Source: Promethearchaeia archaeon (lineage in GTDB: Archaea; Asgardarchaeota; Lokiarchaeia; Sigyniarchaeales; SOKP01). From it: DNA of 64,000 bases. The stretch is from contig JAHQWK010000001.1 in the NCBI GenBank assembly GCA_029856145.1, positions 480,001 through 544,000 on the forward strand, read 5' to 3'. Both the position numbers and the translations under genes were made by a program. Shown in pieces: positions 18,650 to 31,407 of this stretch. Numbering within the stretch: position 1 is the stretch's first letter; each line of letters opens with the position of its first letter. The notes under the pieces were generated by a model that worked only from the letters and a program-made list of their open reading frames with translations, was not told the origin of the DNA and ran no database searches.

Positions 18650-21600
18650 ATGTCAATTTTTTATTTTCGAACTTTGTTGCTTGGTTCAGACCCTGATACT
18701 ATTCATTTTTATATATCAAGAGCTTTTGGTGAACCTGGCGAAGATAAGGAGACTTATGTCTCATGGTATAAAGAATTAAACGTCTTAGATAATAAATGTG
18801 ATTTAGAAATTGATGCTCTTACAAGTTTTTCTGCTAATTTAGATGAAATAATTCCAACGGTAGATGGAATTGTTTATTTTTTAAATCCTACAATTCAGGA
18901 AGAGTCAGAACTTTTTGAAATGATACTTCCGGATATTTTTTCCGTAAAACGGGATATCCCTACGATTATTATGTTTTATGATCAAAATGGAATTCTTCCT
19001 ATCTCTATTAATGATTTATTAACACATATATGGGTTAATTTTCCTAGCCTTGAAGCATTTGTGAATCTTCCTCCTAACGATTTTCATCAAACTCTCCAAT
19101 CTTTATGCTTAGCTATGATTAATGGAGATACGCCATTAAATATAGAAAATGCATGGATGCGATTTCCAATATTTATACAAATGGCAAATATCTATTTTAA
19201 TAACAAAAATTACTTTTATGCCGCTCAAGCTATCAGAAAAGCAGCTCAAATTGCAGAGATCTATAATAAAGAAGAATTTTTTATAATCAGTGAACAAGCA
19301 GCATACCTTTTTTCCAAAATGAATTTATATTTAGAAGCAAGTAAAATTTTAGAAAAAGTAGATAAACGGAAATCAAGAAATTTCAAGAAGTTATATGCTG
19401 AAGCTATAGTAAGAGAGGGCAATCATTTTTTCAAAAGGAATGAATATGAAAAAGCAGCTAGAAGCTATGAAAGAGCAGCTCAATGGTCAAGTATAGAATT
19501 ATTAGATAAAAAACTTATTAATGAAGCATTTAGATTAGCTATAAATTCGTGGATTTCTGCATGTAGTGTTGAGGATGCTTTTAGAATTTTTCTAAGTTTA
19601 CCTCATAAAGAGGTTATCACCATTTTAAAAGAAATTTCGGATAAAATTTGTGCTGCAGCTGATTATTTGGCAAGTATTAATAATTTTGAATTAGCAAGAG
19701 AACAGCTATATAGCGCAGTTAACAGATATCAATTGGAGGATCTTTTTGATGAATTAAAAAACTTGACTACCAAACTTTCCGAAGTTCTAATTGAACTTTT
19801 TAAGCATCAAGTAAAAGAACAAAAAAAACATGCTGCTAGAAATACTTATGATGAGATTGAAAACATGTGGATCTCTTATAAGGTAAAAAAAGTAGATTTA
19901 AATTTGACTCTAGAAGAGTTGATTAATCAATTTTTTGAAGTTAATAATTTTGGAATGGCTACAATATTAATAGATAAATTAAGTTCAAGAAAATCCAAAC
20001 AACAATTAGCAAAAGTTAGAGATGAGCTCGAAGATAAATATAGAGCTTTGAAAAAGAAAGAAGTAGAAGACAATATCAATAAAGGAGTTCAAGTTATAAG
20101 AGATTTTGGCGAAGTTGAACGAGAAATACTTATAGAGATGAATTCTCAAAAAATAACTGAAGTAAATGAATTTATTAAACATAATAGTTATTTAACAGCA
20201 GCAAATCTGCTGAAAAAACAAGCAGAATATCTTAAAAGTATTGGAAAAGATGAAATAAGGGATCAAATTCTAACAAAATCTTTAGACATCTTGTTAGATG
20301 GTTTAGAATTTGAAAATTTCTTCATAACTTGTAATACACTCTCAGGTGAAATGAAAACCAAATATTTAACTAGAATTTTTCCAAAATATATTCAAAAATT
20401 AAATGAACTTAAGGATTCTGAGGATTATCTAAGAAAAGAAAGAATTTTTGAGAATTCAATCAGAATTTACCGAGATCAAATGCTTTATGACCATTCAAAA
20501 GAAATAAGCTTACTTTTCATAAAACTTGTTAAAACTGAAGCCTTAAGGATATTGGAGAGCGAAGATAATCTCTCTGCTGTCAATAAAGCTGAAGTTTTAA
20601 TCAAAAAAGCTCTAAATATAACTTCAGCATATCTGGAAAAAGAGGAAAATATTAAAATTACTTTTAACAAAATCTATAAAAAAATTACTGAAATTTATAT
20701 TGAATTAGATAACTTGCATTTAGCACACGTTTATAATGATAAAATTGAAAAACCAACTTACAAAATAGAACTCAATAAGAAAATAGAGAAACTTGAAGCT
20801 AAGAAAAGTGAAATTAGATCTAAAAAAGCTAAGGAAACACGTAAAGGAGAAGAATTAAAGGAAAAAGATTCAATTATCGAAAAAAGAGCGCAAGAAGCGA
20901 GATTAGATAAAGAAAATGATATGAAAGAACGAAAAGGATTAATAAGAGGATATTTCAAAGATGGTTTGAGTTATTTAAAATCCCAACAGTATGATGAAGC
21001 GCTTGAGATCTACAAAAATACAATGAATCGATTAAATTTGACTAAAAAATATAAATTAGCAGGAGTTTCTTTAGCCATAGCAAGTTTAATACTTATGAAA
21101 CAAAATAAATTTGAACAAGCGAGGAATTTATTAAATGAGACAAAAAAGAAATTATCTGGTTTAGCTAAATTATTTTCTGAAACATTTGCGGTTACATTGA
21201 TCGAATATGTTATTGATTTGAAGAGTTTTCAAGATGAAGAAAAATTGAAAGAATCACTGCACTTTTTTGAAATACTCCCATTATTTGAAGAGGAATTATT
21301 TTTATTATATGATCTAATAGGCGAAGAATATCAAAAGGAAGAAAAGCGTGAAAAAACTATTGAGACGTTCGCAAAACAAAAAGAAATTGAAAGGATTGTT
21401 AAAAAGCTAGCAGGATCTATTGAAAAAAAAACACATCACATAAAACAACGAGAGGCAATCAAAAGCCAATATTGGAGACTTATATTAGATGATATCTTTA
21501 ATGGAAAAATGATAAATGCATCAATAGGTTATTTTGACATAATACCAAAACTAATCAAAGAAGGTTATATTAAACTAGCTGCAGTTAGTTTGATCTTAGG

Positions 21601-22378
21601 TTCGATAATCCTTATTAATGAAAAAACAGTTAAAATTTCTGAAGAAACATTCCAGAAACATGTAGATGAAAATAAATCTGATTTAAAGCCTCTTCCAGAA
21701 ATCGAGATTATGAAGTATTTTTTCCCTGCAATAAGAAATGATGAAAAATCGGTTATTAAACTAATCATTGATTCATTTATCGAGAAATTGGTTTTGTTCG
21801 AACCTGAAATTCAGATATTAAGAAATATTGCTGGAGAAGAAATTTCGGAAGAAGAAGAAATTGAAGAAATGTCAAGAAAAGAATATGGAAAATTATCAAA
21901 AATACGAATAGATTTTGAGCAAAGATATGGCAAACTACATTCTAAACAAGGAGATGCTAGAAGAGATAAAGAAAATTCATTAAAGAAAAGAAAACCAATG
22001 AGAAAGAGGTATTATTTATTGATATTAGAGTTGTTGGAAACAAAAAAATTTAAGGAGGGTGCAGAAAAATACTTAGAATTAGCATATAGTTTCTCTAAAA
22101 GGAAAGATCTCGAGAGTAGTTCATTAATGGTGATTTTTTATGGATTAGCTCTTTTAAAGGCAGAAGAACCCTTAAAATCAATTAAAAAGAATATTAATAT
22201 TTATTTAAATAGCTTAGGAGTTAACAAAAAATTGGTCGAAGAAACATTTTATATTATGCTAATTATGTTTCTGATTGATGTAAAACTATATAATTTTGAC
22301 AAATTTTTGCCTAAAATTAAAGAAATATTGGAGATACTGCCTATGTTCGAAGAAGAGAAGGTTTTAATTGAAGAATAA
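18650..22378 (+). CDS. Large alpha-solenoid (TPR/SNAP-like) protein with a degenerate small-GTPase-like N-terminus
   Basis: 1242 aa, helical throughout, with three C-terminal repeats ending L(P/V)(L/M)FE(E/P)E. Confidence 0.7.
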   Translation: MSIFYFRTLLLGSDPDTIHFYISRAFGEPGEDKETYVSWYKELNVLDNKCDLEIDALTSFSANLDEIIPTVDGIVYFLNPTIQEESELFEMILPDIFSVKRDIPTIIMFYDQNGILPISINDLLTHIWVNFPSLEAFVNLPPNDFHQTLQSLCLAMINGDTPLNIENAWMRFPIFIQMANIYFNNKNYFYAAQAIRKAAQIAEIYNKEEFFIISEQAAYLFSKMNLYLEASKILEKVDKRKSRNFKKLYAEAIVREGNHFFKRNEYEKAARSYERAAQWSSIELLDKKLINEAFRLAINSWISACSVEDAFRIFLSLPHKEVITILKEISDKICAAADYLASINNFELAREQLYSAVNRYQLEDLFDELKNLTTKLSEVLIELFKHQVKEQKKHAARNTYDEIENMWISYKVKKVDLNLTLEELINQFFEVNNFGMATILIDKLSSRKSKQQLAKVRDELEDKYRALKKKEVEDNINKGVQVIRDFGEVEREILIEMNSQKITEVNEFIKHNSYLTAANLLKKQAEYLKSIGKDEIRDQILTKSLDILLDGLEFENFFITCNTLSGEMKTKYLTRIFPKYIQKLNELKDSEDYLRKERIFENSIRIYRDQMLYDHSKEISLLFIKLVKTEALRILESEDNLSAVNKAEVLIKKALNITSAYLEKEENIKITFNKIYKKITEIYIELDNLHLAHVYNDKIEKPTYKIELNKKIEKLEAKKSEIRSKKAKETRKGEELKEKDSIIEKRAQEARLDKENDMKERKGLIRGYFKDGLSYLKSQQYDEALEIYKNTMNRLNLTKKYKLAGVSLAIASLILMKQNKFEQARNLLNETKKKLSGLAKLFSETFAVTLIEYVIDLKSFQDEEKLKESLHFFEILPLFEEELFLLYDLIGEEYQKEEKREKTIETFAKQKEIERIVKKLAGSIEKKTHHIKQREAIKSQYWRLILDDIFNGKMINASIGYFDIIPKLIKEGYIKLAAVSLILGSIILINEKTVKISEETFQKHVDENKSDLKPLPEIEIMKYFFPAIRNDEKSVIKLIIDSFIEKLVLFEPEIQILRNIAGEEISEEEEIEEMSRKEYGKLSKIRIDFEQRYGKLHSKQGDARRDKENSLKKRKPMRKRYYLLILELLETKKFKEGAEKYLELAYSFSKRKDLESSSLMVIFYGLALLKAEEPLKSIKKNINIYLNSLGVNKKLVEETFYIMLIMFLIDVKLYNFDKFLPKIKEILEILPMFEEEKVLIEE

Positions 22379-22387
22379 AAAGATTTT

Positions 22388-23311
22388 TTAATCGGCCATA
22401 TTAGCATAATTTTGTAAATCCTTGACACGCATTCTCAGAGTAACTTCAGTAACCCTAGCTAATTTTGAAATTTCTTTTTGAGTTCGGTTCTCATTACAAA
22501 TTTTCGAACCAATATAAATAGCTGCTGCTGCTATCCCTTTAGGATCCTTTCCCGCCGAATTAAATCCACTTTCCCTAGCTTTTTCAATAATTTTAACAGC
22601 TATATTTCGACATTTCATAGATAGCTTTAATTCTTCATTAAATTTATCTACATAACGCTCACTAGAAAAGTGAGTCACTTTCAAACCTAATTTCGGCAAT
22701 ACTTCCATCAAAATTAAACGATAACTTTTGATCACTTTTTTTTTAGGAATTTGTGCAACTTTTGTAATCTCTTCGGCAGTTCTGGGTATTCCATGGACTC
22801 GTAAAGCCGCAAAAATCGAAGCTGATAATAGGGTATCAATACTACGACCCATTGTTAATTTCTTTTTTACTGTTTGAGTATAAATCCGAAGTGCATCCTC
22901 TGCAACCGCATCAGGAATTCCTAATCTCTTTTGTAAACGCTGTAAATTTGGTAAAGCAATCCATAAATTTCTTTCATAGCTAGTTGTTAGTGATCTATGT
23001 ATTTTAGCTAATCTATTGAACTTTGACTTATATTTTGGACTTAATAACGTACCTCTGGCATCTCTAGAACCTCTAATAATGGTTCTTGGGCCAATAGGAC
23101 TGTATACTCTCTCGTTACTTTTTCTTTTTTGGATTTCTTCTTGAGTAAAAGCTCTCCGAGGACTATCATCAAGAATACGAGAATATACAAATCCGCAATT
23201 TAAACACACATACCAGCCATCCTCTTCCGAAATTTTTGGGCTGTCACAGCAAGGGGGTCCTTCTTCGGTGCCATCTTCAAAAAAATCATCATCTTCAAAA
23301 TGTGCTGGCAT
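22388..23311 (-). CDS. tfb: Transcription initiation factor TFB (TFIIB)
   Basis: Zn ribbon (CC...VCLNCG), two cyclin repeats (GRS...AS...PRT and GKDPKGIAAAAIY) and TEVTLR. Confidence 0.93.
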   Translation of the reverse strand: MPAHFEDDDFFEDGTEEGPPCCDSPKISEEDGWYVCLNCGFVYSRILDDSPRRAFTQEEIQKRKSNERVYSPIGPRTIIRGSRDARGTLLSPKYKSKFNRLAKIHRSLTTSYERNLWIALPNLQRLQKRLGIPDAVAEDALRIYTQTVKKKLTMGRSIDTLLSASIFAALRVHGIPRTAEEITKVAQIPKKKVIKSYRLILMEVLPKLGLKVTHFSSERYVDKFNEELKLSMKCRNIAVKIIEKARESGFNSAGKDPKGIAAAAIYIGSKICNENRTQKEISKLARVTEVTLRMRVKDLQNYANMAD

Positions 23312-23415
23312 AGTTTTTAAAATGCAAAAGGACGGTAATTGAATTTTTAATTTTTTTCCTTAGAAATACATAAATTAAAAAATATATAAGTGTAATCTAT
23401 TTCAAATTAACTTGT

Positions 23416-23428
23416 GAAAATTTATATC
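23416..23428 (+). promoter_or_regulatory. BRE/TATA candidate (GAAAATTTATATC) for the Arf-like GTPase gene
   Basis: Matches the archaeal purine-rich BRE plus TTTATA. The same motif occurs at 36412 and 62167. Confidence 0.45.
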
Positions 23429-23511
23429 TTTATCTTTTTAACTAGTATAGTAATAAATAATAATAAAAATTAAATCAACCTATTAATAATAAAGAAAAAT
23501 CGTTATTTGTA

Positions 23512-24750
23512 ATGTCTACTGAAGTCTCTAGCTTGATAAAAGTCATCTCTAAATTTTTAGACCCGAAATCTGCTAAAGTTAGTAAATTAAAAGAAATTGA
23601 TGACATTTTAAAATTACATATTGATTCTTATAAATTTATTGATAAAGAAGAATTCACAATCATTAAGCAATTATTGGACATCACGACCATTGGAGATGCC
23701 TCAAAGTTAAATAAAGATGACCCGTTTGGGAGTCTTATTGAAATTGAAGAAACGGATGATTCTATAGAATTAGCAATAGACTTGCAGAAAAAAATTGAGG
23801 AATTAAAAGAAAAATACCCTTTTCTTGAAACTAAATTAAAGAAAACAGGCACAATTAGTTCACTTATTGCGAGTATTAAAGAGGAAAAAGAAGGAATAGA
23901 GATTAAAGGTCAAAAAGTTCTTGTATGTGGTTTAGACGCAGCTGGGAAAACATCATTGTTATCCAAATTTGGAGGACGTTTAGGAATAAGTGATATGATC
24001 GCAACACATCCAACAAAAGGAGTGGTACGAATGAAATTTGGCACTAGCAATTTGAATCTATTTATATGGGATTTGGGTGGTCAAGAGGAATATAGAGAAA
24101 GATATTTAAATAATCCAGAGCAATATTTTGTCCAATTGGATTTATTAATGTTTGTAATTGATGTACAGGATCCTGATAGATTTGAAGAATCTCTTCAATA
24201 TTTTGATAAGATAATAGATTCAATAATCTTGTTAGAGGAAACTCCCTATATATTAATATTCATTCATAAGTATGATCCTGATCTGAAAAATGACCCAAAA
24301 ATACTCTTAAATGTTGAACTTTTAAAGGATAACTTAAATGAACTTTTAAAAAGTAAAACGAGCGAATTTGAGCTTGAGATCTATTTAACATCAATATATT
24401 CTCTTATTTCTCGTGAACCTCAGTTTGCTAAATATATAAAGAATTTGATGAGTGCAAGTTCTTCTCTAACTGATCCGACAGTACGAAAAGTGGAGGGTCT
24501 TGGAAAGACTTTAGAAGAAACTTTGAATGCTGTAATTCGTTTATCAGAAAGTATTTCTATGCAACTCAGCGATCTTGATAATCGACTTCGAGCAATAGAG
24601 TCAGGAGCGTTTCAAGTTGCTCAAAGTGGTATTCCAATTGAAATTGCTAATCCCAATCAGCCAACCGCAAGGCGTCAAGAAAATGTACGTTTAAATGTCC
24701 TTAATGAGTTAAAAGATTTATTTAGCAAGAGGAAAAGTCTAGACCTTTAA
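23512..24750 (+). CDS. Arf/Rag-like small GTPase with an N-terminal helical domain and a C-terminal coiled coil
   Basis: GLDAAGKTS, PTKG, WDLGGQ and HKYD. Confidence 0.88.
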   Translation: MSTEVSSLIKVISKFLDPKSAKVSKLKEIDDILKLHIDSYKFIDKEEFTIIKQLLDITTIGDASKLNKDDPFGSLIEIEETDDSIELAIDLQKKIEELKEKYPFLETKLKKTGTISSLIASIKEEKEGIEIKGQKVLVCGLDAAGKTSLLSKFGGRLGISDMIATHPTKGVVRMKFGTSNLNLFIWDLGGQEEYRERYLNNPEQYFVQLDLLMFVIDVQDPDRFEESLQYFDKIIDSIILLEETPYILIFIHKYDPDLKNDPKILLNVELLKDNLNELLKSKTSEFELEIYLTSIYSLISREPQFAKYIKNLMSASSSLTDPTVRKVEGLGKTLEETLNAVIRLSESISMQLSDLDNRLRAIESGAFQVAQSGIPIEIANPNQPTARRQENVRLNVLNELKDLFSKRKSLDL

Positions 24751-24759
24751 ATCTTTAGC

Positions 24760-25479
24760 CTATTCTTTTTTAAAAGATTTCATAATCTTCTTATAGAATG
24801 TTAACAAAAAAATAGCAAAAAATATACTAATCGAGAGTAATAGATACCCTATATTACTAATCAACATTGTATTAATTTCTTGATATTGAATTTCATATGC
24901 TACAAACTGTTCTAAGTAGGTTAGCATTTTATATATTAGTGGACCGGTTAAATAGAGCGTTATTAAAAATCCTATTATACCAAAAATGCAACCAAATATG
25001 ACATCTGTAGGGTAATGCACACCAAGCTGAATTCTTGAAAATGAAACCATAATCACAAGTAAAAATAGTAAAATACAAATAATTGGTGATTTCGTAAAAA
25101 ACAAACCAAATAATAAACCTTGTGCCATAACATTATACGAATGCCACGACGGAAAACTTCTCGAAGTAGGTTTTCGTTCAAAAACAATTATTTCACCTTC
25201 TTCAAATCTTTCAAATGGCCTTTTTCTTTTTACTGTTTGTTTTATCACTAATATTAGAATTAATCCAGTAAGAAATGTAGCGGAGATATAGGCTAATAAA
25301 AAAGGATCATACCAAATAAATAAATAAAAAGCAATTAAGAAAAGCCATAAAGTTTCTCTTCCAAAAAAAGAAATAAATCTTAAAATGATTGTGAATGGTT
25401 TACCCCCTAAACCATTGTATTTCATAATAATTCTTTGGTCCCATTGGTCAATTCTATTTGAAAATTCTTTGAAATCCAT
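24760..25479 (-). CDS. PAP2-family membrane phosphatase
   Basis: K....R.RP, SFPSWH and SRIQLGVHYPTD. Confidence 0.9.
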   Translation of the reverse strand: MDFKEFSNRIDQWDQRIIMKYNGLGGKPFTIILRFISFFGRETLWLFLIAFYLFIWYDPFLLAYISATFLTGLILILVIKQTVKRKRPFERFEEGEIIVFERKPTSRSFPSWHSYNVMAQGLLFGLFFTKSPIICILLFLLVIMVSFSRIQLGVHYPTDVIFGCIFGIIGFLITLYLTGPLIYKMLTYLEQFVAYEIQYQEINTMLISNIGYLLLSISIFFAIFLLTFYKKIMKSFKKE

Positions 25480-25502
25480 AATAGTTTGTATGTCTTGGTT
25501 TT

Positions 25503-26297
25503 TTAATGTGGATTTAATAACTTATAAGCTTCAATCACTTTAGGGATTTGATCTTTAAAATAGTCTAATGAATGTGAATCAGATCCAACAAAAAATTCTA
25601 CTCCTTCTTTCCTTAACTGCTTCATAACACTCATGGATGGAAATGATCTATTTATTGGAAATCGCAATCCAGATAAATTTAATTCTACTTTTATTTTGTT
25701 TTTTATACATAGGCGACCTAAATCTATTACTCGATTATCAGATACATCACAATCATCTGTAGGTATGCAATCATTATTATTAATATAACGAAAGATAGTA
25801 TCAATATGACAGATATTTTTAAAAATTTGCGAGTTAATCATTTTTGTACTTAATTCAAAATAATTATCTATAATCTGTTTCATTGGAATTTTTTCTAACA
25901 ATTTTGTTAACCCCTCTCTTGTTGTAATGGGATATCCAATTATCCATTCGTGAATAGATCCTCCAATAAAATCAAATTCTTTCCCATAATCATCCATAAA
26001 TTCAATTAATTGAATCTCTTTACTCTCATAGTATTCAATTTCTAAGCCACTGAGTATGAAATCATATGTTTCTTTATATATATCGATCTCTTCAAGATAA
26101 TCATTAACTCTTCCATTATAAAAGGGATTAGTCTTGTCATTTTCCACATAATAAAGTTCATAATGGTCAAGAAAACAGACATTAATTTGGTGTTCTTCAG
26201 CAACTTTTATATAATCTTCAAAAGTAGGACCGTCTTGTGCCACATCTCCGCTCCAATTTCTAGTATGAACATGAAAATCTGTAAATTTAAACTTCAT
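25503..26297 (-). CDS. PHP-family histidinol-phosphatase-like protein
   Basis: DFHVHT, DH, GLEIE, GSIH, HID and GSDSH. Confidence 0.85.
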   Translation of the reverse strand: MKFKFTDFHVHTRNWSGDVAQDGPTFEDYIKVAEEHQINVCFLDHYELYYVENDKTNPFYNGRVNDYLEEIDIYKETYDFILSGLEIEYYESKEIQLIEFMDDYGKEFDFIGGSIHEWIIGYPITTREGLTKLLEKIPMKQIIDNYFELSTKMINSQIFKNICHIDTIFRYINNNDCIPTDDCDVSDNRVIDLGRLCIKNKIKVELNLSGLRFPINRSFPSMSVMKQLRKEGVEFFVGSDSHSLDYFKDQIPKVIEAYKLLNPH

Positions 26298-26346: not shown

Positions 26347-28251
26347 TCAACTAATTGAATCTTCTTTATCAAAAAAAACTCTGTAAAACAGTTCTTTTTC
26401 ACCTATATCTGGCGGAGTTATCTTAGTATAGCCTCCCTTATGAATAACACGAATTGTTTCTTTATTTTGAATGTGTATATTTCCATAGAATCCCTTTATA
26501 CCTTTTTCCTTAGCAACAATAATTATATGTTGATATAGAAATGTACCAATACCCTTTCCTCGATAATCTTCCCTAACTAAAAAGCTATATTCCGCCATAT
26601 TCATTTGAGGGTTTAAATAATATGTAGCACTTCCTATCATTTCTTCTTTTCCAATTTCCCCAATAAATGCTCCTAGTGAAAAAACATTATGATAATCAAT
26701 ATTAACTTCACTCTGAGTTTTTGAATGTGTGAATTCTTTTCTAAGCTCAAAAAATCGTAAATATCTATCTCTTTCATTTAATGAATAATACAATTCTTTA
26801 AGGACTTGTTCATCTGTAGTTTTAACAGGTCGAATATTAATTTTTTCTCTATCTCTTGTTGTATAAATGGTTTCGTATTCTGAAGGATATAAACAAATTC
26901 GACCATCATCATCACAAGGAAGCATCTGATCAGAAAATATATAATTCAATTTTTTAGCTTCGTCTAATAATGATTGTCGGAATTTTGGGTGAGCTATACA
27001 AATCAACTCAAGCACTCTTTCACGAATAGTTTTACCATGAAGGTATGCCACACCCCATTCAGTCACAATATAATGAACATCACCACGAGATAACAATATT
27101 CCTGCTCCTTCATCTAGATGAGGCACAATTCGTGATTTTTCACCATCTCTAGATGTTGAAGGTATTATTATAATGGGTTTTCCTCCTTTAGAAAATGCTG
27201 CACCCCTCATAAAATCAATAGTTTCACCTAATCCCGAATAAAAACTGTAACCCTCAGTAGCAGCATTTACTTGTCCAGTCAAATCAATTTGTCTAGCAGA
27301 ATTGACAGAGACCATTTTTTTATTCATTCCAATGTATCTAGGATTACATACATAATCAGATGGAAAAAATTCTATATAGGGATTATTGTCTACAAAATCA
27401 TATAATTTTTTTGTTCCTAAAGCAAAACTAGTAAGAATTTTTTCAGGATGGAAATTCTTTTTTCTACAAGTCAATACTCCGTTTTCAATGAGTGGTATTA
27501 CATTGTCTGTAATATAATGAGAATGCATTCCAAGATCTCTTTTATCCTTTAGAAATTTTAAGCTTGCATTTGGTAAGTCACCAAAACCTATATGAATCGT
27601 AGATTTATTTTCTATTATGTTTGCAAGATTTTTTCCGATTCTTTCAGCTATTTCATCAGGCTCATCAAAAATAAATTCTAATAACGGTGTGTCATTAAAG
27701 ACAAAAAAATCAATTTCTTTCATATGTATGAAACTATTTCCTAAAGTTCGCGGCATTTGTGGGTTAATTTCAACAATAGTGATATAGGATGATTGAGCTA
27801 TTGGCTTCGCAATATCTACATTAATCCCTAAAGAGCAAAAACCATAGGGATCTGGGGGAGAAACTTGTATAAGGGCAACATCGATATGTTTCTTACCAGT
27901 TAGAAATAAAGATGGAATTTCACTAGTAAAAATAGGTGTATAGTCTGCTTGACCTTTGTTAATTTCCTCTCTAAGAGTTTTTCCAATAAAAAATGCATTA
28001 TGTCTAAAGAGATCCTCTGCCTTATCCTTAAAATATTTTTCTGGACCTATAGTTAAGAAGTGAAGTATTTCAGTATCAATTAATTTCTCTGAGTGTTTAA
28101 TCAATTCTGATGTTAGTAACTGTGGCTCTGAACATCCAGAATCAATAAAAACTCTATTTCCAGGAATTATTTTTTTAATTGCTTCCTCTGCTGTTATTTC
28201 CTTATCTTTCCATTTTTCTCTCCAGTCTTCTTTCATAATATTAGATTTCAC
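26347..28251 (-). CDS. Acetyl-CoA hydrolase/4-hydroxybutyrate CoA-transferase-like domain fused to a C-terminal Pat-like GNAT acetyltransferase
   Basis: DVALIQVSPPD.YGFCSLG and VHYIVTEWG.A.L.GK..RER in the transferase domain; IRP...D...L.....SL...DRYLRFF and YRGKGIG in the GNAT domain. Confidence 0.88.
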   Translation of the reverse strand: MKSNIMKEDWREKWKDKEITAEEAIKKIIPGNRVFIDSGCSEPQLLTSELIKHSEKLIDTEILHFLTIGPEKYFKDKAEDLFRHNAFFIGKTLREEINKGQADYTPIFTSEIPSLFLTGKKHIDVALIQVSPPDPYGFCSLGINVDIAKPIAQSSYITIVEINPQMPRTLGNSFIHMKEIDFFVFNDTPLLEFIFDEPDEIAERIGKNLANIIENKSTIHIGFGDLPNASLKFLKDKRDLGMHSHYITDNVIPLIENGVLTCRKKNFHPEKILTSFALGTKKLYDFVDNNPYIEFFPSDYVCNPRYIGMNKKMVSVNSARQIDLTGQVNAATEGYSFYSGLGETIDFMRGAAFSKGGKPIIIIPSTSRDGEKSRIVPHLDEGAGILLSRGDVHYIVTEWGVAYLHGKTIRERVLELICIAHPKFRQSLLDEAKKLNYIFSDQMLPCDDDGRICLYPSEYETIYTTRDREKINIRPVKTTDEQVLKELYYSLNERDRYLRFFELRKEFTHSKTQSEVNIDYHNVFSLGAFIGEIGKEEMIGSATYYLNPQMNMAEYSFLVREDYRGKGIGTFLYQHIIIVAKEKGIKGFYGNIHIQNKETIRVIHKGGYTKITPPDIGEKELFYRVFFDKEDSIS

Positions 28252-28402
28252 CTTTTATTCTAGTTTAATTTAATTCTTTAAAATATAAATATAATCTCCA
28301 GTCTCTTTATTAATTGTATTATCATCAATATAATGTTTTTGAAATTATAAATAAAATGTTTAAATTCAATTCTATATATCTCTCAATTGATTCAAATCTG
28401 TC

Positions 28403-28427
28403 CATTTAAATCTAAAAGGTTTAAATG
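28403..28427. promoter_or_regulatory. Inverted repeat CATTTAAA-N9-TTTAAATG in the divergent acs / CoA-transferase-GNAT promoter region
   Basis: Perfect 8-bp arms, upstream of the AAAAATCTTTAAAA TATA-like element of acs. Confidence 0.35.
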
Positions 28428-28528
28428 TGATGTGTATAAAAAAAAATCTTTAAAATGGTTAAAGAATTTATTAAAATTAGAATTCTAAATAATATAAATT
28501 GACTGAAAATTTGTTTAAGTGAAGAATT

Positions 28529-30511
28529 ATGTCAGAAGAAGATAAGAAAATGGAAAGTATTCTAACAGAGACTCGTAAATTCGACCCAGTTAAACTAAAC
28601 GAGAAGTTTGCGAAAACTGGCATGTCTTTTGAAGAATATAAGAATCTATATAAGCAATCAATAGAAGATATGGAAGGTTTCTGGGGAGAACAAGCTAAAT
28701 CTCTTGATTGGTTCAAACCCTATGAAAAAGTTTGGGAAAAAACCGATCTATTTCCTGGTAAGTGGTTTATTGGCGGTAAACTTAACGTTGCTTACAATTG
28801 CCTTGATAGGCATGTAAAAAATGGAAAAGGTGATCAAGCAGCTCTTATTTGGGAAGCTGATGAGCCCGGACAGATTAAATCTTATACTTATAAAGAATTA
28901 CTTGCTGAAGTAAGTAAAACTGCAAATGCTATGAAAAAAGTTGGATTAAAAAAAGGCGATAGAGTCACAATTTGGCTTCCTATGATTCCTGAATTGGCAA
29001 TTATTATGTTAGCATGCGCTCGAATTGGCGTTATTCATTCAATTGTTTTTGGTGGCTTTTCTAAAGAAGCAGTAAAAGATAGAATTGAGGATTCTGATTC
29101 TCGATTACTCTTCACAAGTGATGAAACAGCACGTGCGGGTAAATTTTACCCCAAAATAGCTGATGTAGTCCAGATCATTAATGATGTACCAACGATTGAG
29201 CATGTCATTGTTGTAAAGCGAACTGGAAGAGACGTACCTCATACTGAAAAAGATATCTGGTATCACGACTTCATTGAAGGAATGAGTGAGGAATGTGAGC
29301 CTGAAATGATGGACTCTGAAGATACACTATTCATTCTTTATACAAGTGGAACTACTGGAAAACCCAAGGGCGTTAATCATACTACAGCAGGCTATATATT
29401 ATTTACATCTATTACCCATAAAATCGTATTTAATTACCATGAAGGTGATATCTGGTATTGTACTGCAGATATTGGTTGGATTACAGGTCATTCTTATATT
29501 GTATATGGACCTTTAGCTAATGGTGCTACTTCATTAATGTTTGAGGGAGTTCCAACTTATCCTGATGTTGATCGTTTCTGGGATATTGTAGAACGTCATA
29601 AAGTGACTCATTTCTATACAGCTCCTACTGCAATTCGTGCTATAATGAGATATGGTGATGATCATGTTAACAAGCATGATCTTAGTTCATTAAAAGTCCT
29701 AGGTACTGTTGGAGAACCTATAAATCCCGAAGCATGGACATGGTATCATAGAGTTGTTGGAAAAGAGAAATGTCCTATAGTTGATACTTACTGGCAAACT
29801 GAAACCGGGGGGTTTATTATGACCCCAATCGCTACAGCAACACCCACAAAACCTGGGTCTTGTTGTCTACCATTTTTAGGTATTAAACCAATCATTTTCG
29901 ATTTAGAAGGGGATGAAATTACAGAACCAAACGAAGGTGGATACTTTGCAATTGCTCAAAGTTGGCCGGGTATGTTACGTGATGTTTGGGGTGATACTGA
30001 GAGATTTAAATCAACTTATCTCGAAAAATATCCAGGATATTATTATACTGGTGATGGAGCACGACGAGATGAAGATGGTTATTATTGGATTTTAGGTAGA
30101 CTTGATGATGTTATTAAAGTATCTGGACATAGAATAGGAACCATGGAAGTAGAATCTGCTCTTGTAAGTCATCCAAAAGTAGCTGAAGCAGCAATTGCCC
30201 CATTTCCCCATAAAATTAAAGGGCAGGCAATATGGGCGTATGTTACTTTAATGCAAGGAGTTGAAAAATCTGCTAAATTATCCAAAGAAATTAGAATGCA
30301 TGTTAGACAAGAAATTGGGCCTGTATTTCAACCAGACGTTATTCAATTTGCTGATGCCTTGCCTAAGACGAGAAGTGGTAAGATAATGAGAAGAATATTA
30401 AAAGCTATTGCCGCTGGCACGAATATTGGAAATGTTACAACATTAGCTGATCCCTCTGTAGTAGATGCTTTACTTGAAGAACGTAAAAAGATGGATGTTG
30501 AAATAGGTTAA
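28529..30511 (+). CDS. acs: AMP-forming acetyl-CoA synthetase
   Basis: YTSGTTGKPKG, ADIGWITGH, DTYWQTETGG and PKTRSGKIMRR. Confidence 0.96.
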   Translation: MSEEDKKMESILTETRKFDPVKLNEKFAKTGMSFEEYKNLYKQSIEDMEGFWGEQAKSLDWFKPYEKVWEKTDLFPGKWFIGGKLNVAYNCLDRHVKNGKGDQAALIWEADEPGQIKSYTYKELLAEVSKTANAMKKVGLKKGDRVTIWLPMIPELAIIMLACARIGVIHSIVFGGFSKEAVKDRIEDSDSRLLFTSDETARAGKFYPKIADVVQIINDVPTIEHVIVVKRTGRDVPHTEKDIWYHDFIEGMSEECEPEMMDSEDTLFILYTSGTTGKPKGVNHTTAGYILFTSITHKIVFNYHEGDIWYCTADIGWITGHSYIVYGPLANGATSLMFEGVPTYPDVDRFWDIVERHKVTHFYTAPTAIRAIMRYGDDHVNKHDLSSLKVLGTVGEPINPEAWTWYHRVVGKEKCPIVDTYWQTETGGFIMTPIATATPTKPGSCCLPFLGIKPIIFDLEGDEITEPNEGGYFAIAQSWPGMLRDVWGDTERFKSTYLEKYPGYYYTGDGARRDEDGYYWILGRLDDVIKVSGHRIGTMEVESALVSHPKVAEAAIAPFPHKIKGQAIWAYVTLMQGVEKSAKLSKEIRMHVRQEIGPVFQPDVIQFADALPKTRSGKIMRRILKAIAAGTNIGNVTTLADPSVVDALLEERKKMDVEIG

Positions 30512-30517
30512 ATTATA

Positions 30518-30546
30518 TTTTTATTTTATATTTTTTTTTAATTTTT
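30518..30546 (+). terminator. Oligo-T terminator candidate after acs
   Basis: Long T tracts follow the stop codon. Confidence 0.45.
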
Positions 30547-30564
30547 AAAAAATCCAATTTTTCC

Positions 30565-31407
30565 TCAACCTTTTGCAAAAGTACCTATTATGTATAGTAA
30601 ATCTAATTCCTTATTAATATCTTTTCCCAATATCATCTTTACACTGGCTCTATTTTCTAGTTCAGTTAAATTGAACAATTCAAAAATCCTTTTTGGGAAG
30701 TATTGATGTTTAGCAATAATCATATGATCAGCTTCTAATGCAATACTCTTATTAATTATCTGTGATGCTGCATCTAAATTCGTGGCAATTAATGGGCCTA
30801 ACCGCTTATTCGCCACTAATCCATATCCTTCATTTTCAATAATTAAAATCCTAGCACCCAATTTAATTCTCATGGTTAAATAATTAGTTCTATTAAATCC
30901 CATTGCTTTCTTATCTAGAGCTAACACCCAGTCCGGAACTGTATTTAAAACCTTTACCTCTTTATTTGCAATTCCTAATTTTGGAGGTTGTATTGGTAAA
31001 TGATACATCACCCCATAAAATCTTCTTTTAAAACCAAATTTTTTATAGATGGGTTCTCCTAATTTGGAAGCATAAAGTATCATTGTCTCGCAATTCATTT
31101 TATTTGCAATTCCTACTAAATTTCTAAAAATTTCTGTGCCTACTCCTCTTCCTCTGTATTCTTTCAACACAACCATATATCCAAAACTACTAACTTTTTC
31201 AAATATAAAAACCCCACCCACACCAATAATCTTTCCTTTCTCTTCAGAAATAAGGAATTTTCCAATTTTCCATTTTATTAAAGCCTTCCATATTTTTTCT
31301 TCTTCTTGAATACTCGCTGGAGGAGCTCTACCAAAAGCAGAATAGAGTACATTTATACATTTGGAAATTTCTTCGTCTGCTGGTTCTCTAATAGTATATT
31401 TAAACAT
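30565..31407 (-). CDS. GNAT-family N-acetyltransferase (two-domain)
   Basis: V..EYRGRGVG, LYAS..G.PIY.K.GF and a C-terminal RLGPLIA domain. Confidence 0.85.
   Translation of the reverse strand: MFKYTIREPADEEISKCINVLYSAFGRAPPASIQEEEKIWKALIKWKIGKFLISEEKGKIIGVGGVFIFEKVSSFGYMVVLKEYRGRGVGTEIFRNLVGIANKMNCETMILYASKLGEPIYKKFGFKRRFYGVMYHLPIQPPKLGIANKEVKVLNTVPDWVLALDKKAMGFNRTNYLTMRIKLGARILIIENEGYGLVANKRLGPLIATNLDAASQIINKSIALEADHMIIAKHQYFPKRIFELFNLTELENRASVKMILGKDINKELDLLYIIGTFAKG

Follow-up and report, generated by a model that had tools for sequence, protein, structure and literature searches.

A stretch of 64,000 nucleotides from a Promethearchaeia archaeon (assembly GCA_029856145.1, contig JAHQWK010000001.1, positions 480,001 to 544,000; hereafter the window) carries acs head-to-head with a gene whose product joins a domain resembling family I coenzyme A (CoA)-transferases to a Pat-type GNAT acetyltransferase domain. 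Acs is known to be controlled by acetylation in both bacteria and eukaryotes, and lineages differ in what gates the acetyltransferase. The locus raises the question of what a CoA-transferase domain without its catalytic glutamate does in front of an acetyltransferase, and whether Acs is the target of the fusion. Our analysis showed that the fusion system is real and conserved, and apparently uncharacterised. We read the protein as a Pat-family acetyltransferase that targets Acs and carries a control module derived from a CoA-transferase, and we give this explanation, taken as a whole, about an even chance of being right.

The structure of the fusion was predicted with a pLDDT of 91.8 and a pTM of 0.89, and Pfam placed AcetylCoA_hydro at residues 5-182, AcetylCoA_hyd_C at 274-427 and Acetyltransf_1 at 502-600. 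The model of the N-terminal domain matched 3GK7 (TM 0.93 by target, 38% identity), and the two-subdomain CoA-transferase fold is present. The sequence-only reading of this locus had reported that the catalytic Glu of the GxH(S/T)E motif is replaced by His and that the GGQ loop reads GET. Alignment with 3GK7, 3EH7, 2OAS and 9VAG confirmed both: the Glu is absent and His240 occupies its position, and GET forms residues 337-339, followed by the retained Asp341-Phe342. Residue 338, which judged by residue offsets may correspond to the oxyanion-hole Gly388 of AarC, is always acidic in the clade lacking the catalytic Glu (the Glu-lost clade), with Glu in 71% of its members and Asp in the other 29%. 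The changes fixed in this clade concentrate in the active site (His215, Phe/Asn218, His240, Cys297, Glu/Asp338 and Thr339), and the pocket-lining His238, acid 338, Asp341, Cys297 and Asn324 are fixed across it. At the same time, the mean within-clade identity was 84% and 82% in the two transferase subdomains and 78% in the GNAT. Because the domain is so well conserved and the fixed changes cluster in the active site, its pocket is, on the evidence of the alignments, rebuilt rather than abandoned. The canonical family I reaction requires the Glu (PMC3180442), and the normal transferase activity of the domain has very probably been lost.

The Glu at position 240 was missing in all 121 close homologues, mostly replaced by His and also by Tyr or Leu, and residue 338 was almost always Glu or Asp among them. 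This rules out an assembly error or a private mutation; neither the Glu loss nor the linkage to acs, found at 49 of 66 Glu-lost loci, is unique to this assembly. The Glu-lost copy is full-length and open in 57 of the 69 genomes of the Asgard family to which the window's genome belongs (f1), and the clade was not found outside f1 among the 301 Asgard genomes examined; homologues of 92% identity carry the names Lokiarchaeota or Promethearchaeota. In the family tree (built by FastTree, root not inferred) the Glu-lost rows grouped together (support 100), nested in a larger clade (support 99) made up mostly of Glu-intact Lokiarchaeia paralogues. The window's genome itself encodes another fusion, which is 54% identical to the first, retains both the Glu and the GGQ loop and has no acs nearby, and most f1 genomes hold both copies. 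The nesting of the Glu-lost clade among Glu-intact paralogues points to a duplication within Lokiarchaeia, in which the window copy arose from a Glu-intact fusion.

The assignment of the second domain to the Pat-type GNATs was upheld by its top PDB matches, which were S. lividans PatA (4NXY/4U5Y, E 7e-15), E. coli PatZ (9IT0) and 3F8K, and by the catalytic Glu549, which was invariant in 47 of 47 acs-linked homologues; the fusion also matched NF058543 (Mycobacterium Pat) weakly. The positions of the open reading frames (ORFs) bore out the divergent arrangement with acs, and the conserved lysine of Acs proved to be Lys618, equivalent to K609 of S. enterica. The presence of this residue is no evidence of acetylation, because the lysine is catalytic and universal in the Acs family. 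When the GNAT was modelled in complex with the C-domain of Acs, the score was 0.82, whereas the best control scored 0.00; 58 of 80 solved complexes attain the mark for this score, as do 2 of 110 mismatched pairs. The runs agreed in at least 93% of contacts, the partner pLDDT was at least 87, and the model placed Lys618 against the RFF motif in the GNAT pocket, with Glu549 beside the residues preceding Lys618. Since a like complex (4U5Y) has already been solved, the model indicates that the likeness is intact and is not proof of binding. Taking the gene links together with the biochemistry of Pat, PatZ and AcuA (PMC8556138, PMC12184503, PMC11255334), we consider it likely that the fusion acetylates Acs.

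A natural deletion bears on the division of labour between the two domains. Three genomes of the sister genus g3 encode, head-to-head with acs, a solo GNAT (L246:6377-6907 in one of them) that the tree places within the Glu-lost clade (57-64% identity, support 99). It arose by an internal deletion (L246:6377-7100, L247, L266), whose 38-codon remnant of the N-terminal domain ends about 13 nt before the ATG of the solo GNAT, and its dN/dS of 0.13-0.23, measured on few changes, indicates that the solo GNAT evolves under purifying selection. Because the solo GNAT stays beside acs after the loss of the other domain, it is, judged by gene order, the GNAT that is linked with Acs, and the N-terminal domain has an accessory role. 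A domain that is conserved generally yet dispensable in g3 is what would be expected of a control module. In the fourth g3 genome (100% complete) there was no match to acs, and the locus retained no more than 27 residues of the GNAT; neither acs nor the fusion was found with these queries in genus g2.

The link to acs extends beyond the Glu-lost clade. Where acs was not seen near a Glu-lost copy, 12 of the 17 loci end within 1.1 kb upstream. In Asgard family f9 a Glu-intact fusion is divergent from acs, with an acetate permease (YaaH) or MFS gene lying between the two; in f18 the two genes are tail-to-tail, and in Armatimonadota, Thermoplasmata and one Desulfobacterota genome a Glu-intact fusion stands in tandem with acs. 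Such loci show that the link to acs is not caused by the loss of the Glu. An AMP-forming ligase is a close neighbour in about 9 of 60 Desulfobacterota loci. At three loci (L188, L213, L214) a zinc deacetylase, a CBS protein of AcuB size, an NDP-forming acyl-CoA synthetase and the fusion follow one another in an order resembling acuC-acuB with the fusion in the place of acuA, which suggests acetylation control of the NDP-forming enzyme. In some fusion homologues a deacetylase domain is part of the same chain; triple fusions of CoA-transferase, GNAT and deacetylase were seen in P0158, P0174 and Atlas row 7, the last a cluster of 100 members whose commonest phylum is Verrucomicrobiota. In Asgard family f24 (L259, L261, L262, L265) a Glu-intact fusion is the first gene of an operon that also encodes an NDP-forming synthetase and a DRTGG protein, and operons of this type also occur in some Desulfobacterota (L218). 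Glu-intact copies were likewise seen next to genes resembling acuC and acuB.

According to the mechanism that we propose, the GNAT would use plentiful acetyl-CoA to acetylate Lys618 of Acs, switching off acetate activation, and deacetylation by one of the genome's 3 sirtuins or 4 zinc deacetylases would reverse this. The N-terminal domain would no longer run the glutamyl ping-pong reaction while keeping its fold and CoA cleft; as a control module it would bind acyl-CoA or CoA and pass its open/closed motion to the GNAT. There are precedents: AarC-E294A, although inactive, retains CoA binding and closes on its ligand (PMC4876117), and dead synthetase domains bind acetyl-CoA and gate Pat and PatZ (PMC8556138, PMC12184503). 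Because AarC-E294A behaves in this way, a Glu-less domain could be a natural acyl-CoA clamp with built-in motion. That the domain senses acyl-CoA and gates the GNAT by its motion seems to us a matter of roughly equal odds.

Several observations weigh against this explanation. In the Clostridium enzyme CoA is contacted by Gln337 and by the Ile equivalent to residue 218 (PMC11659651), and the QxGhG loop has a gating role (PMC11659651, PMC3180442); these CoA-contacting positions are altered in the fusion, where the equivalent of Gln337 is Thr and the gate residue is Phe or Asn, and CoA may be bound less tightly as a result. The catalytic Glu is retained in 101 of 168 dereplicated rows of the fusion family, acs-linked ones included. 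The acs link is independent of a dead domain, because Glu-intact fusions also adjoin acs; synteny within f1 alone proves little, because a PHP-PAP2-GTPase-TFIIB block is equally stable there; and metabolism would in any case place CoA-transferases close to acyl-CoA ligases. A single deletion of adjacent genes could account for the absence of both acs and the GNAT from G040. In addition, the N-terminal domain could still be an enzyme, a hydrolase or an unusual transferase, in which acid 338, with or without His240, replaces the nucleophile or no covalent Glu is used. ThnP, a Cat1-family enzyme, is active without this Glu (PMC11659651), so that of the earlier description of the domain as dead the clade-wide loss of the residue stands and the death itself is only inferred; the ThnP reaction, however, is intramolecular. 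Residue 338 was acidic in 30 rows whose position 240 is not, but in none of the roughly 120 rows that have Glu or Asp at 240, and in the Glu-lost clade the residue is invariantly acidic. The acid that the sequence-only reading took for a possible relocated nucleophile is thus Glu or Asp, and it occurs solely where the catalytic acid is missing; it has two clear origins and at most four. Against such a role, Glu and Asp swap freely at 338, and the covariation did not reach significance when independent pairs were compared (p about 0.25) and fits simple charge filling. Free exchange of Glu and Asp is unusual for a covalent nucleophile in the CoA-transferase family. The Glu state of position 240 changed about 22 times across the family tree (the Glu is kept by 56 of 72 stand-alone transferases and 43 of about 80 fusions), most of the other losses brought no acid, and in g3 the domain was deleted. 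We therefore hold a surviving enzymatic role to be unlikely.

It is also rather improbable, in our estimate, that the GNAT acetylates Acs while the N-terminal domain senses nothing and acts as a dimer scaffold, a substrate-docking surface or a partner of the Glu-intact paralogue. Cat1 enzymes are dimeric (bioRxiv 10.1101/2025.10.31.685773; PMC3180442), the regulatory domain of PatZ helps to shape the Acs pocket (PMC12184503), and the altered CoA contacts, the survival of a solo GNAT in g3 and the existence of an intact paralogue would all suit such a role, but a mere scaffold would not need the pocket-lining residues that are fixed in the clade. The main target could instead be other acyl-CoA ligases, the NDP-forming synthetase or a CoA-transferase, either the fusion's own domain or the paralogue, with the proximity to acs reflecting a shared place in acetate metabolism. 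A 4-hydroxybutyrate-type CoA-transferase of T. thermophilus is acetylated by a GNAT (bioRxiv 10.1101/2025.10.31.685773), and the closest PDB match, 9VAG, is annotated likewise. Many fusions adjoin long-chain or aryl ligases or NDP-forming synthetases instead of acs, and the genome encodes about 14 AMP-forming ligases. However, the solo GNAT of g3 stays with acs, acs links recur in separate branches, and broad targets are compatible with Acs, since Pat enzymes act on many ligases; another main target is thus a decidedly unlikely explanation. The view that the domain is a decaying relic in an incidental arrangement could draw on its complete loss in g3 and on the degenerate duplicates in f1 (L149, L170), but it is largely refuted by the full-length copies in f1, conservation equal to that of the GNAT and a confident model of an intact fold, and we regard it as very improbable.

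The closest comparison is with the type I/II Pat enzymes (S. enterica Pat, E. coli PatZ 9IT0/9ISQ and S. lividans PatA 4NXY/4U5Y). The GNAT is homologous, with the catalytic Glu and RFF in common, a large enzyme-derived second domain lacks its catalytic residue, and the proposed target is the catalytic Lys of Acs. However, the second domain of those enzymes is an NDP-forming acyl-CoA synthetase of about 700 aa, absent from the fusion in a Pfam scan, whereas here it has a family I CoA-transferase fold of about 430 aa; moreover, many members of the fusion family keep the catalytic Glu. The type III GNATs (MtPat with a cAMP, MaKat with an ACT and MxKat with an NADP domain) likewise have a Pat-like GNAT preceded by a module of 300-430 aa, but the module's fold and presumed ligand differ, and the Pfam scan found no cAMP-binding, ACT or NADP Rossmann domain in the fusion. 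Hence, by the identity of the second domain, the fusion is to be placed outside the type I Pat and type III GNAT classes. As in the Bacillus AcsA/AcuABC system, acs is divergent from an acetyltransferase gene, and the Desulfobacterota homologues that lie with AcuC-like and CBS (AcuB-like) genes add to this resemblance; AcuA, however, is a single GNAT domain, and no acuB- or acuC-type gene was detected at the window locus in the ORFs and the Pfam scan, the genome's deacetylases lying on other contigs. With the Cat1 CoA-transferases (AbfT 3GK7/3QDQ, RipA 3QLI, T. thermophilus CoAT and AarC) the fusion has the fold, about 40% identity and most motifs in common, but it differs in the change from Glu to His, from GGQ to GET or GDT, in the gating loop and in the fused GNAT, and by its defining residue it is not classed as an active family I CoA-transferase. 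ThnP also has a Cat1 fold without the canonical Glu; it is a stand-alone, proven intramolecular CoA-transferase acting on dicarboxyl-CoA, and it has Gly where the fusion has His together with a new acid (PMC11659651).

The architecture is widespread, occurring in Desulfobacterota, Thermoplasmata and other Asgard families and forming dozens of clusters at 50% identity. We found fusion matches in 54 of 121 Desulfobacterota genomes, a threshold count that includes a few stand-alone transferases, and the fusion family in 165 of 301 sampled Asgard genomes; Atlas clusters match the fusion over its full length at TM 0.92-0.96. The automatic label in the Atlas and at JGI is 'bifunctional acetyl-CoA hydrolase/transferase family protein/GNAT family N-acetyltransferase'. 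An Asgard-only invention is ruled out by this spread and by the named Atlas clusters. The core idea of the sequence-only reading is nevertheless a good hypothesis, with the dead domain being a lineage-specific state of a broad family. A literature search, outside which most subscription papers lay, returned no characterised member or functional study of the fusion, and the fusion type is missing from the five GNAT types in PMC8556138 and PMC12184503. The family is thus a candidate acetyltransferase gate built from a different enzyme fold, carried by organisms (Desulfobacterota, Asgard) in which acetate flux matters greatly. We would go further with somewhat less than an even chance of being right: the fusions may be an undescribed type of protein acetyltransferase, common among bacteria and archaea that live anaerobically, in which the CoA-transferase domain reads the acyl-CoA or carboxylate state and sets the acetylation of ligases, passing through active, rebuilt and deleted stages, with the new acid of the rebuilt pocket replacing the nucleophile or a bound carboxylate. 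On this reading Asgard archaea would also possess an acetylation switch dedicated to Acs. Nature provides the series in Glu-intact and Glu-lost copies of the same genome and a bare GNAT in the sister genus, and the step from enzyme to sensor is therefore directly testable with recombinant proteins.

Features of the fusion-acs locus and the Glu-intact paralogue. Positions are those of the window unless a contig is named; residues of the fusion are counted in the 629-aa form from ATG 28236.
Feature	Position	Strand	Remarks
CoA-transferase-like::GNAT fusion gene	26347..28251	-	629 aa from ATG 28236; 634 aa from GTG 28251
Cat1 / 4-hydroxybutyrate-type family I CoA-transferase domain	26956..28224	-	residues 5-427; PF02550 + PF13336
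Altered QxGhG gating loop	27583..27594	-	Gln to His215; Ile to Phe218 (Asn in relatives)
His240 replacing catalytic Glu (E238 of 3GK7)	27517..27519	-	alignment with 3GK7, 3EH7, 2OAS, 9VAG
Glu338-Thr339 replacing Gly-Gln of GGQxDF loop (G336/Q337 of 3GK7)	27220..27225	-	alignment
Pat-type GNAT domain	26401..26889	-	about residues 450-612; RFF motif 494-496
Catalytic Glu549 of GNAT	26590-26592	-	aligns with SlPatA E123, PatZ E809
Acetyl-CoA-binding RxxGxG loop of GNAT	residues 559-564	-	motif present
acs	28529..30511	+	TIGR02188 + NF001208 above cut-off
Acs Lys618, proposed acetylation site	30380..30382	+	aligns with S. enterica Acs K609
Conserved AT-rich element, probable acs promoter (role inferred)	28347..28364	+	about 164 nt from acs start
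Second conserved element, probable fusion promoter (role inferred)	28325..28342	-	about 90-110 nt before fusion
Second GNAT, Acetyltransf_18, tandem type	30565..31407	-	neighbour, not a conserved part of the system
Glu-intact paralogue	G000:C9:142478-144277 (L081:8422-10329)		neighbours include radical SAM-like and MutY-like genes

Across related loci, the intergenic spacer (window 28252-28528) is a frequent site of insertion for unrelated genes or mobile DNA of 0.5-5.8 kb. Where such insertions part the genes, the AT-rich element holds its fixed distance from the acs start; a shared bidirectional promoter is not supported, as the two conserved elements separate when up to 5.8 kb is inserted, each staying with its own gene. 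The second GNAT noted on the other side of acs in the initial reading is indeed present, but only 5 of 49 loci have it close to acs. It also belongs to another GNAT family, and we rejected it as a component of the switch. Downstream of the fusion, window 18650-26297 encodes a 1242-aa helical protein, TFIIB, a 412-aa protein with a small-GTPase domain, PAP2 and a PHP-type phosphatase, a block kept in most f1 loci.

Some further variants were seen among the homologues. In a Desulfobacterota clade of separate origin (L180, L182, L183, L186, L192, L212) the Glu is changed to Gln and GGQ to GDQ, and four of these loci directly adjoin AMP-forming ligases. Gly at the catalytic position, as in ThnP, occurs in twelve stand-alone CoA-transferase clusters (P0222, P0225-P0266), and two fusions with an extra N-terminal region containing a 4Fe-4S dicluster domain (P0124, P0127) both lack the catalytic Glu. 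In L038, L059, L112, L113, L114 and L116 the fusion is whole and acs is split into two ORFs, by sequencing error or real breaks. Finally, the same Lokiarchaeia block as in the window appears at 81-91% identity in L016, L019, L024, L026, L032 and L037, which are titled Odin-, Hod- or Thorarchaeota or Nanopelagicaceae and are probably mislabelled or misbinned.

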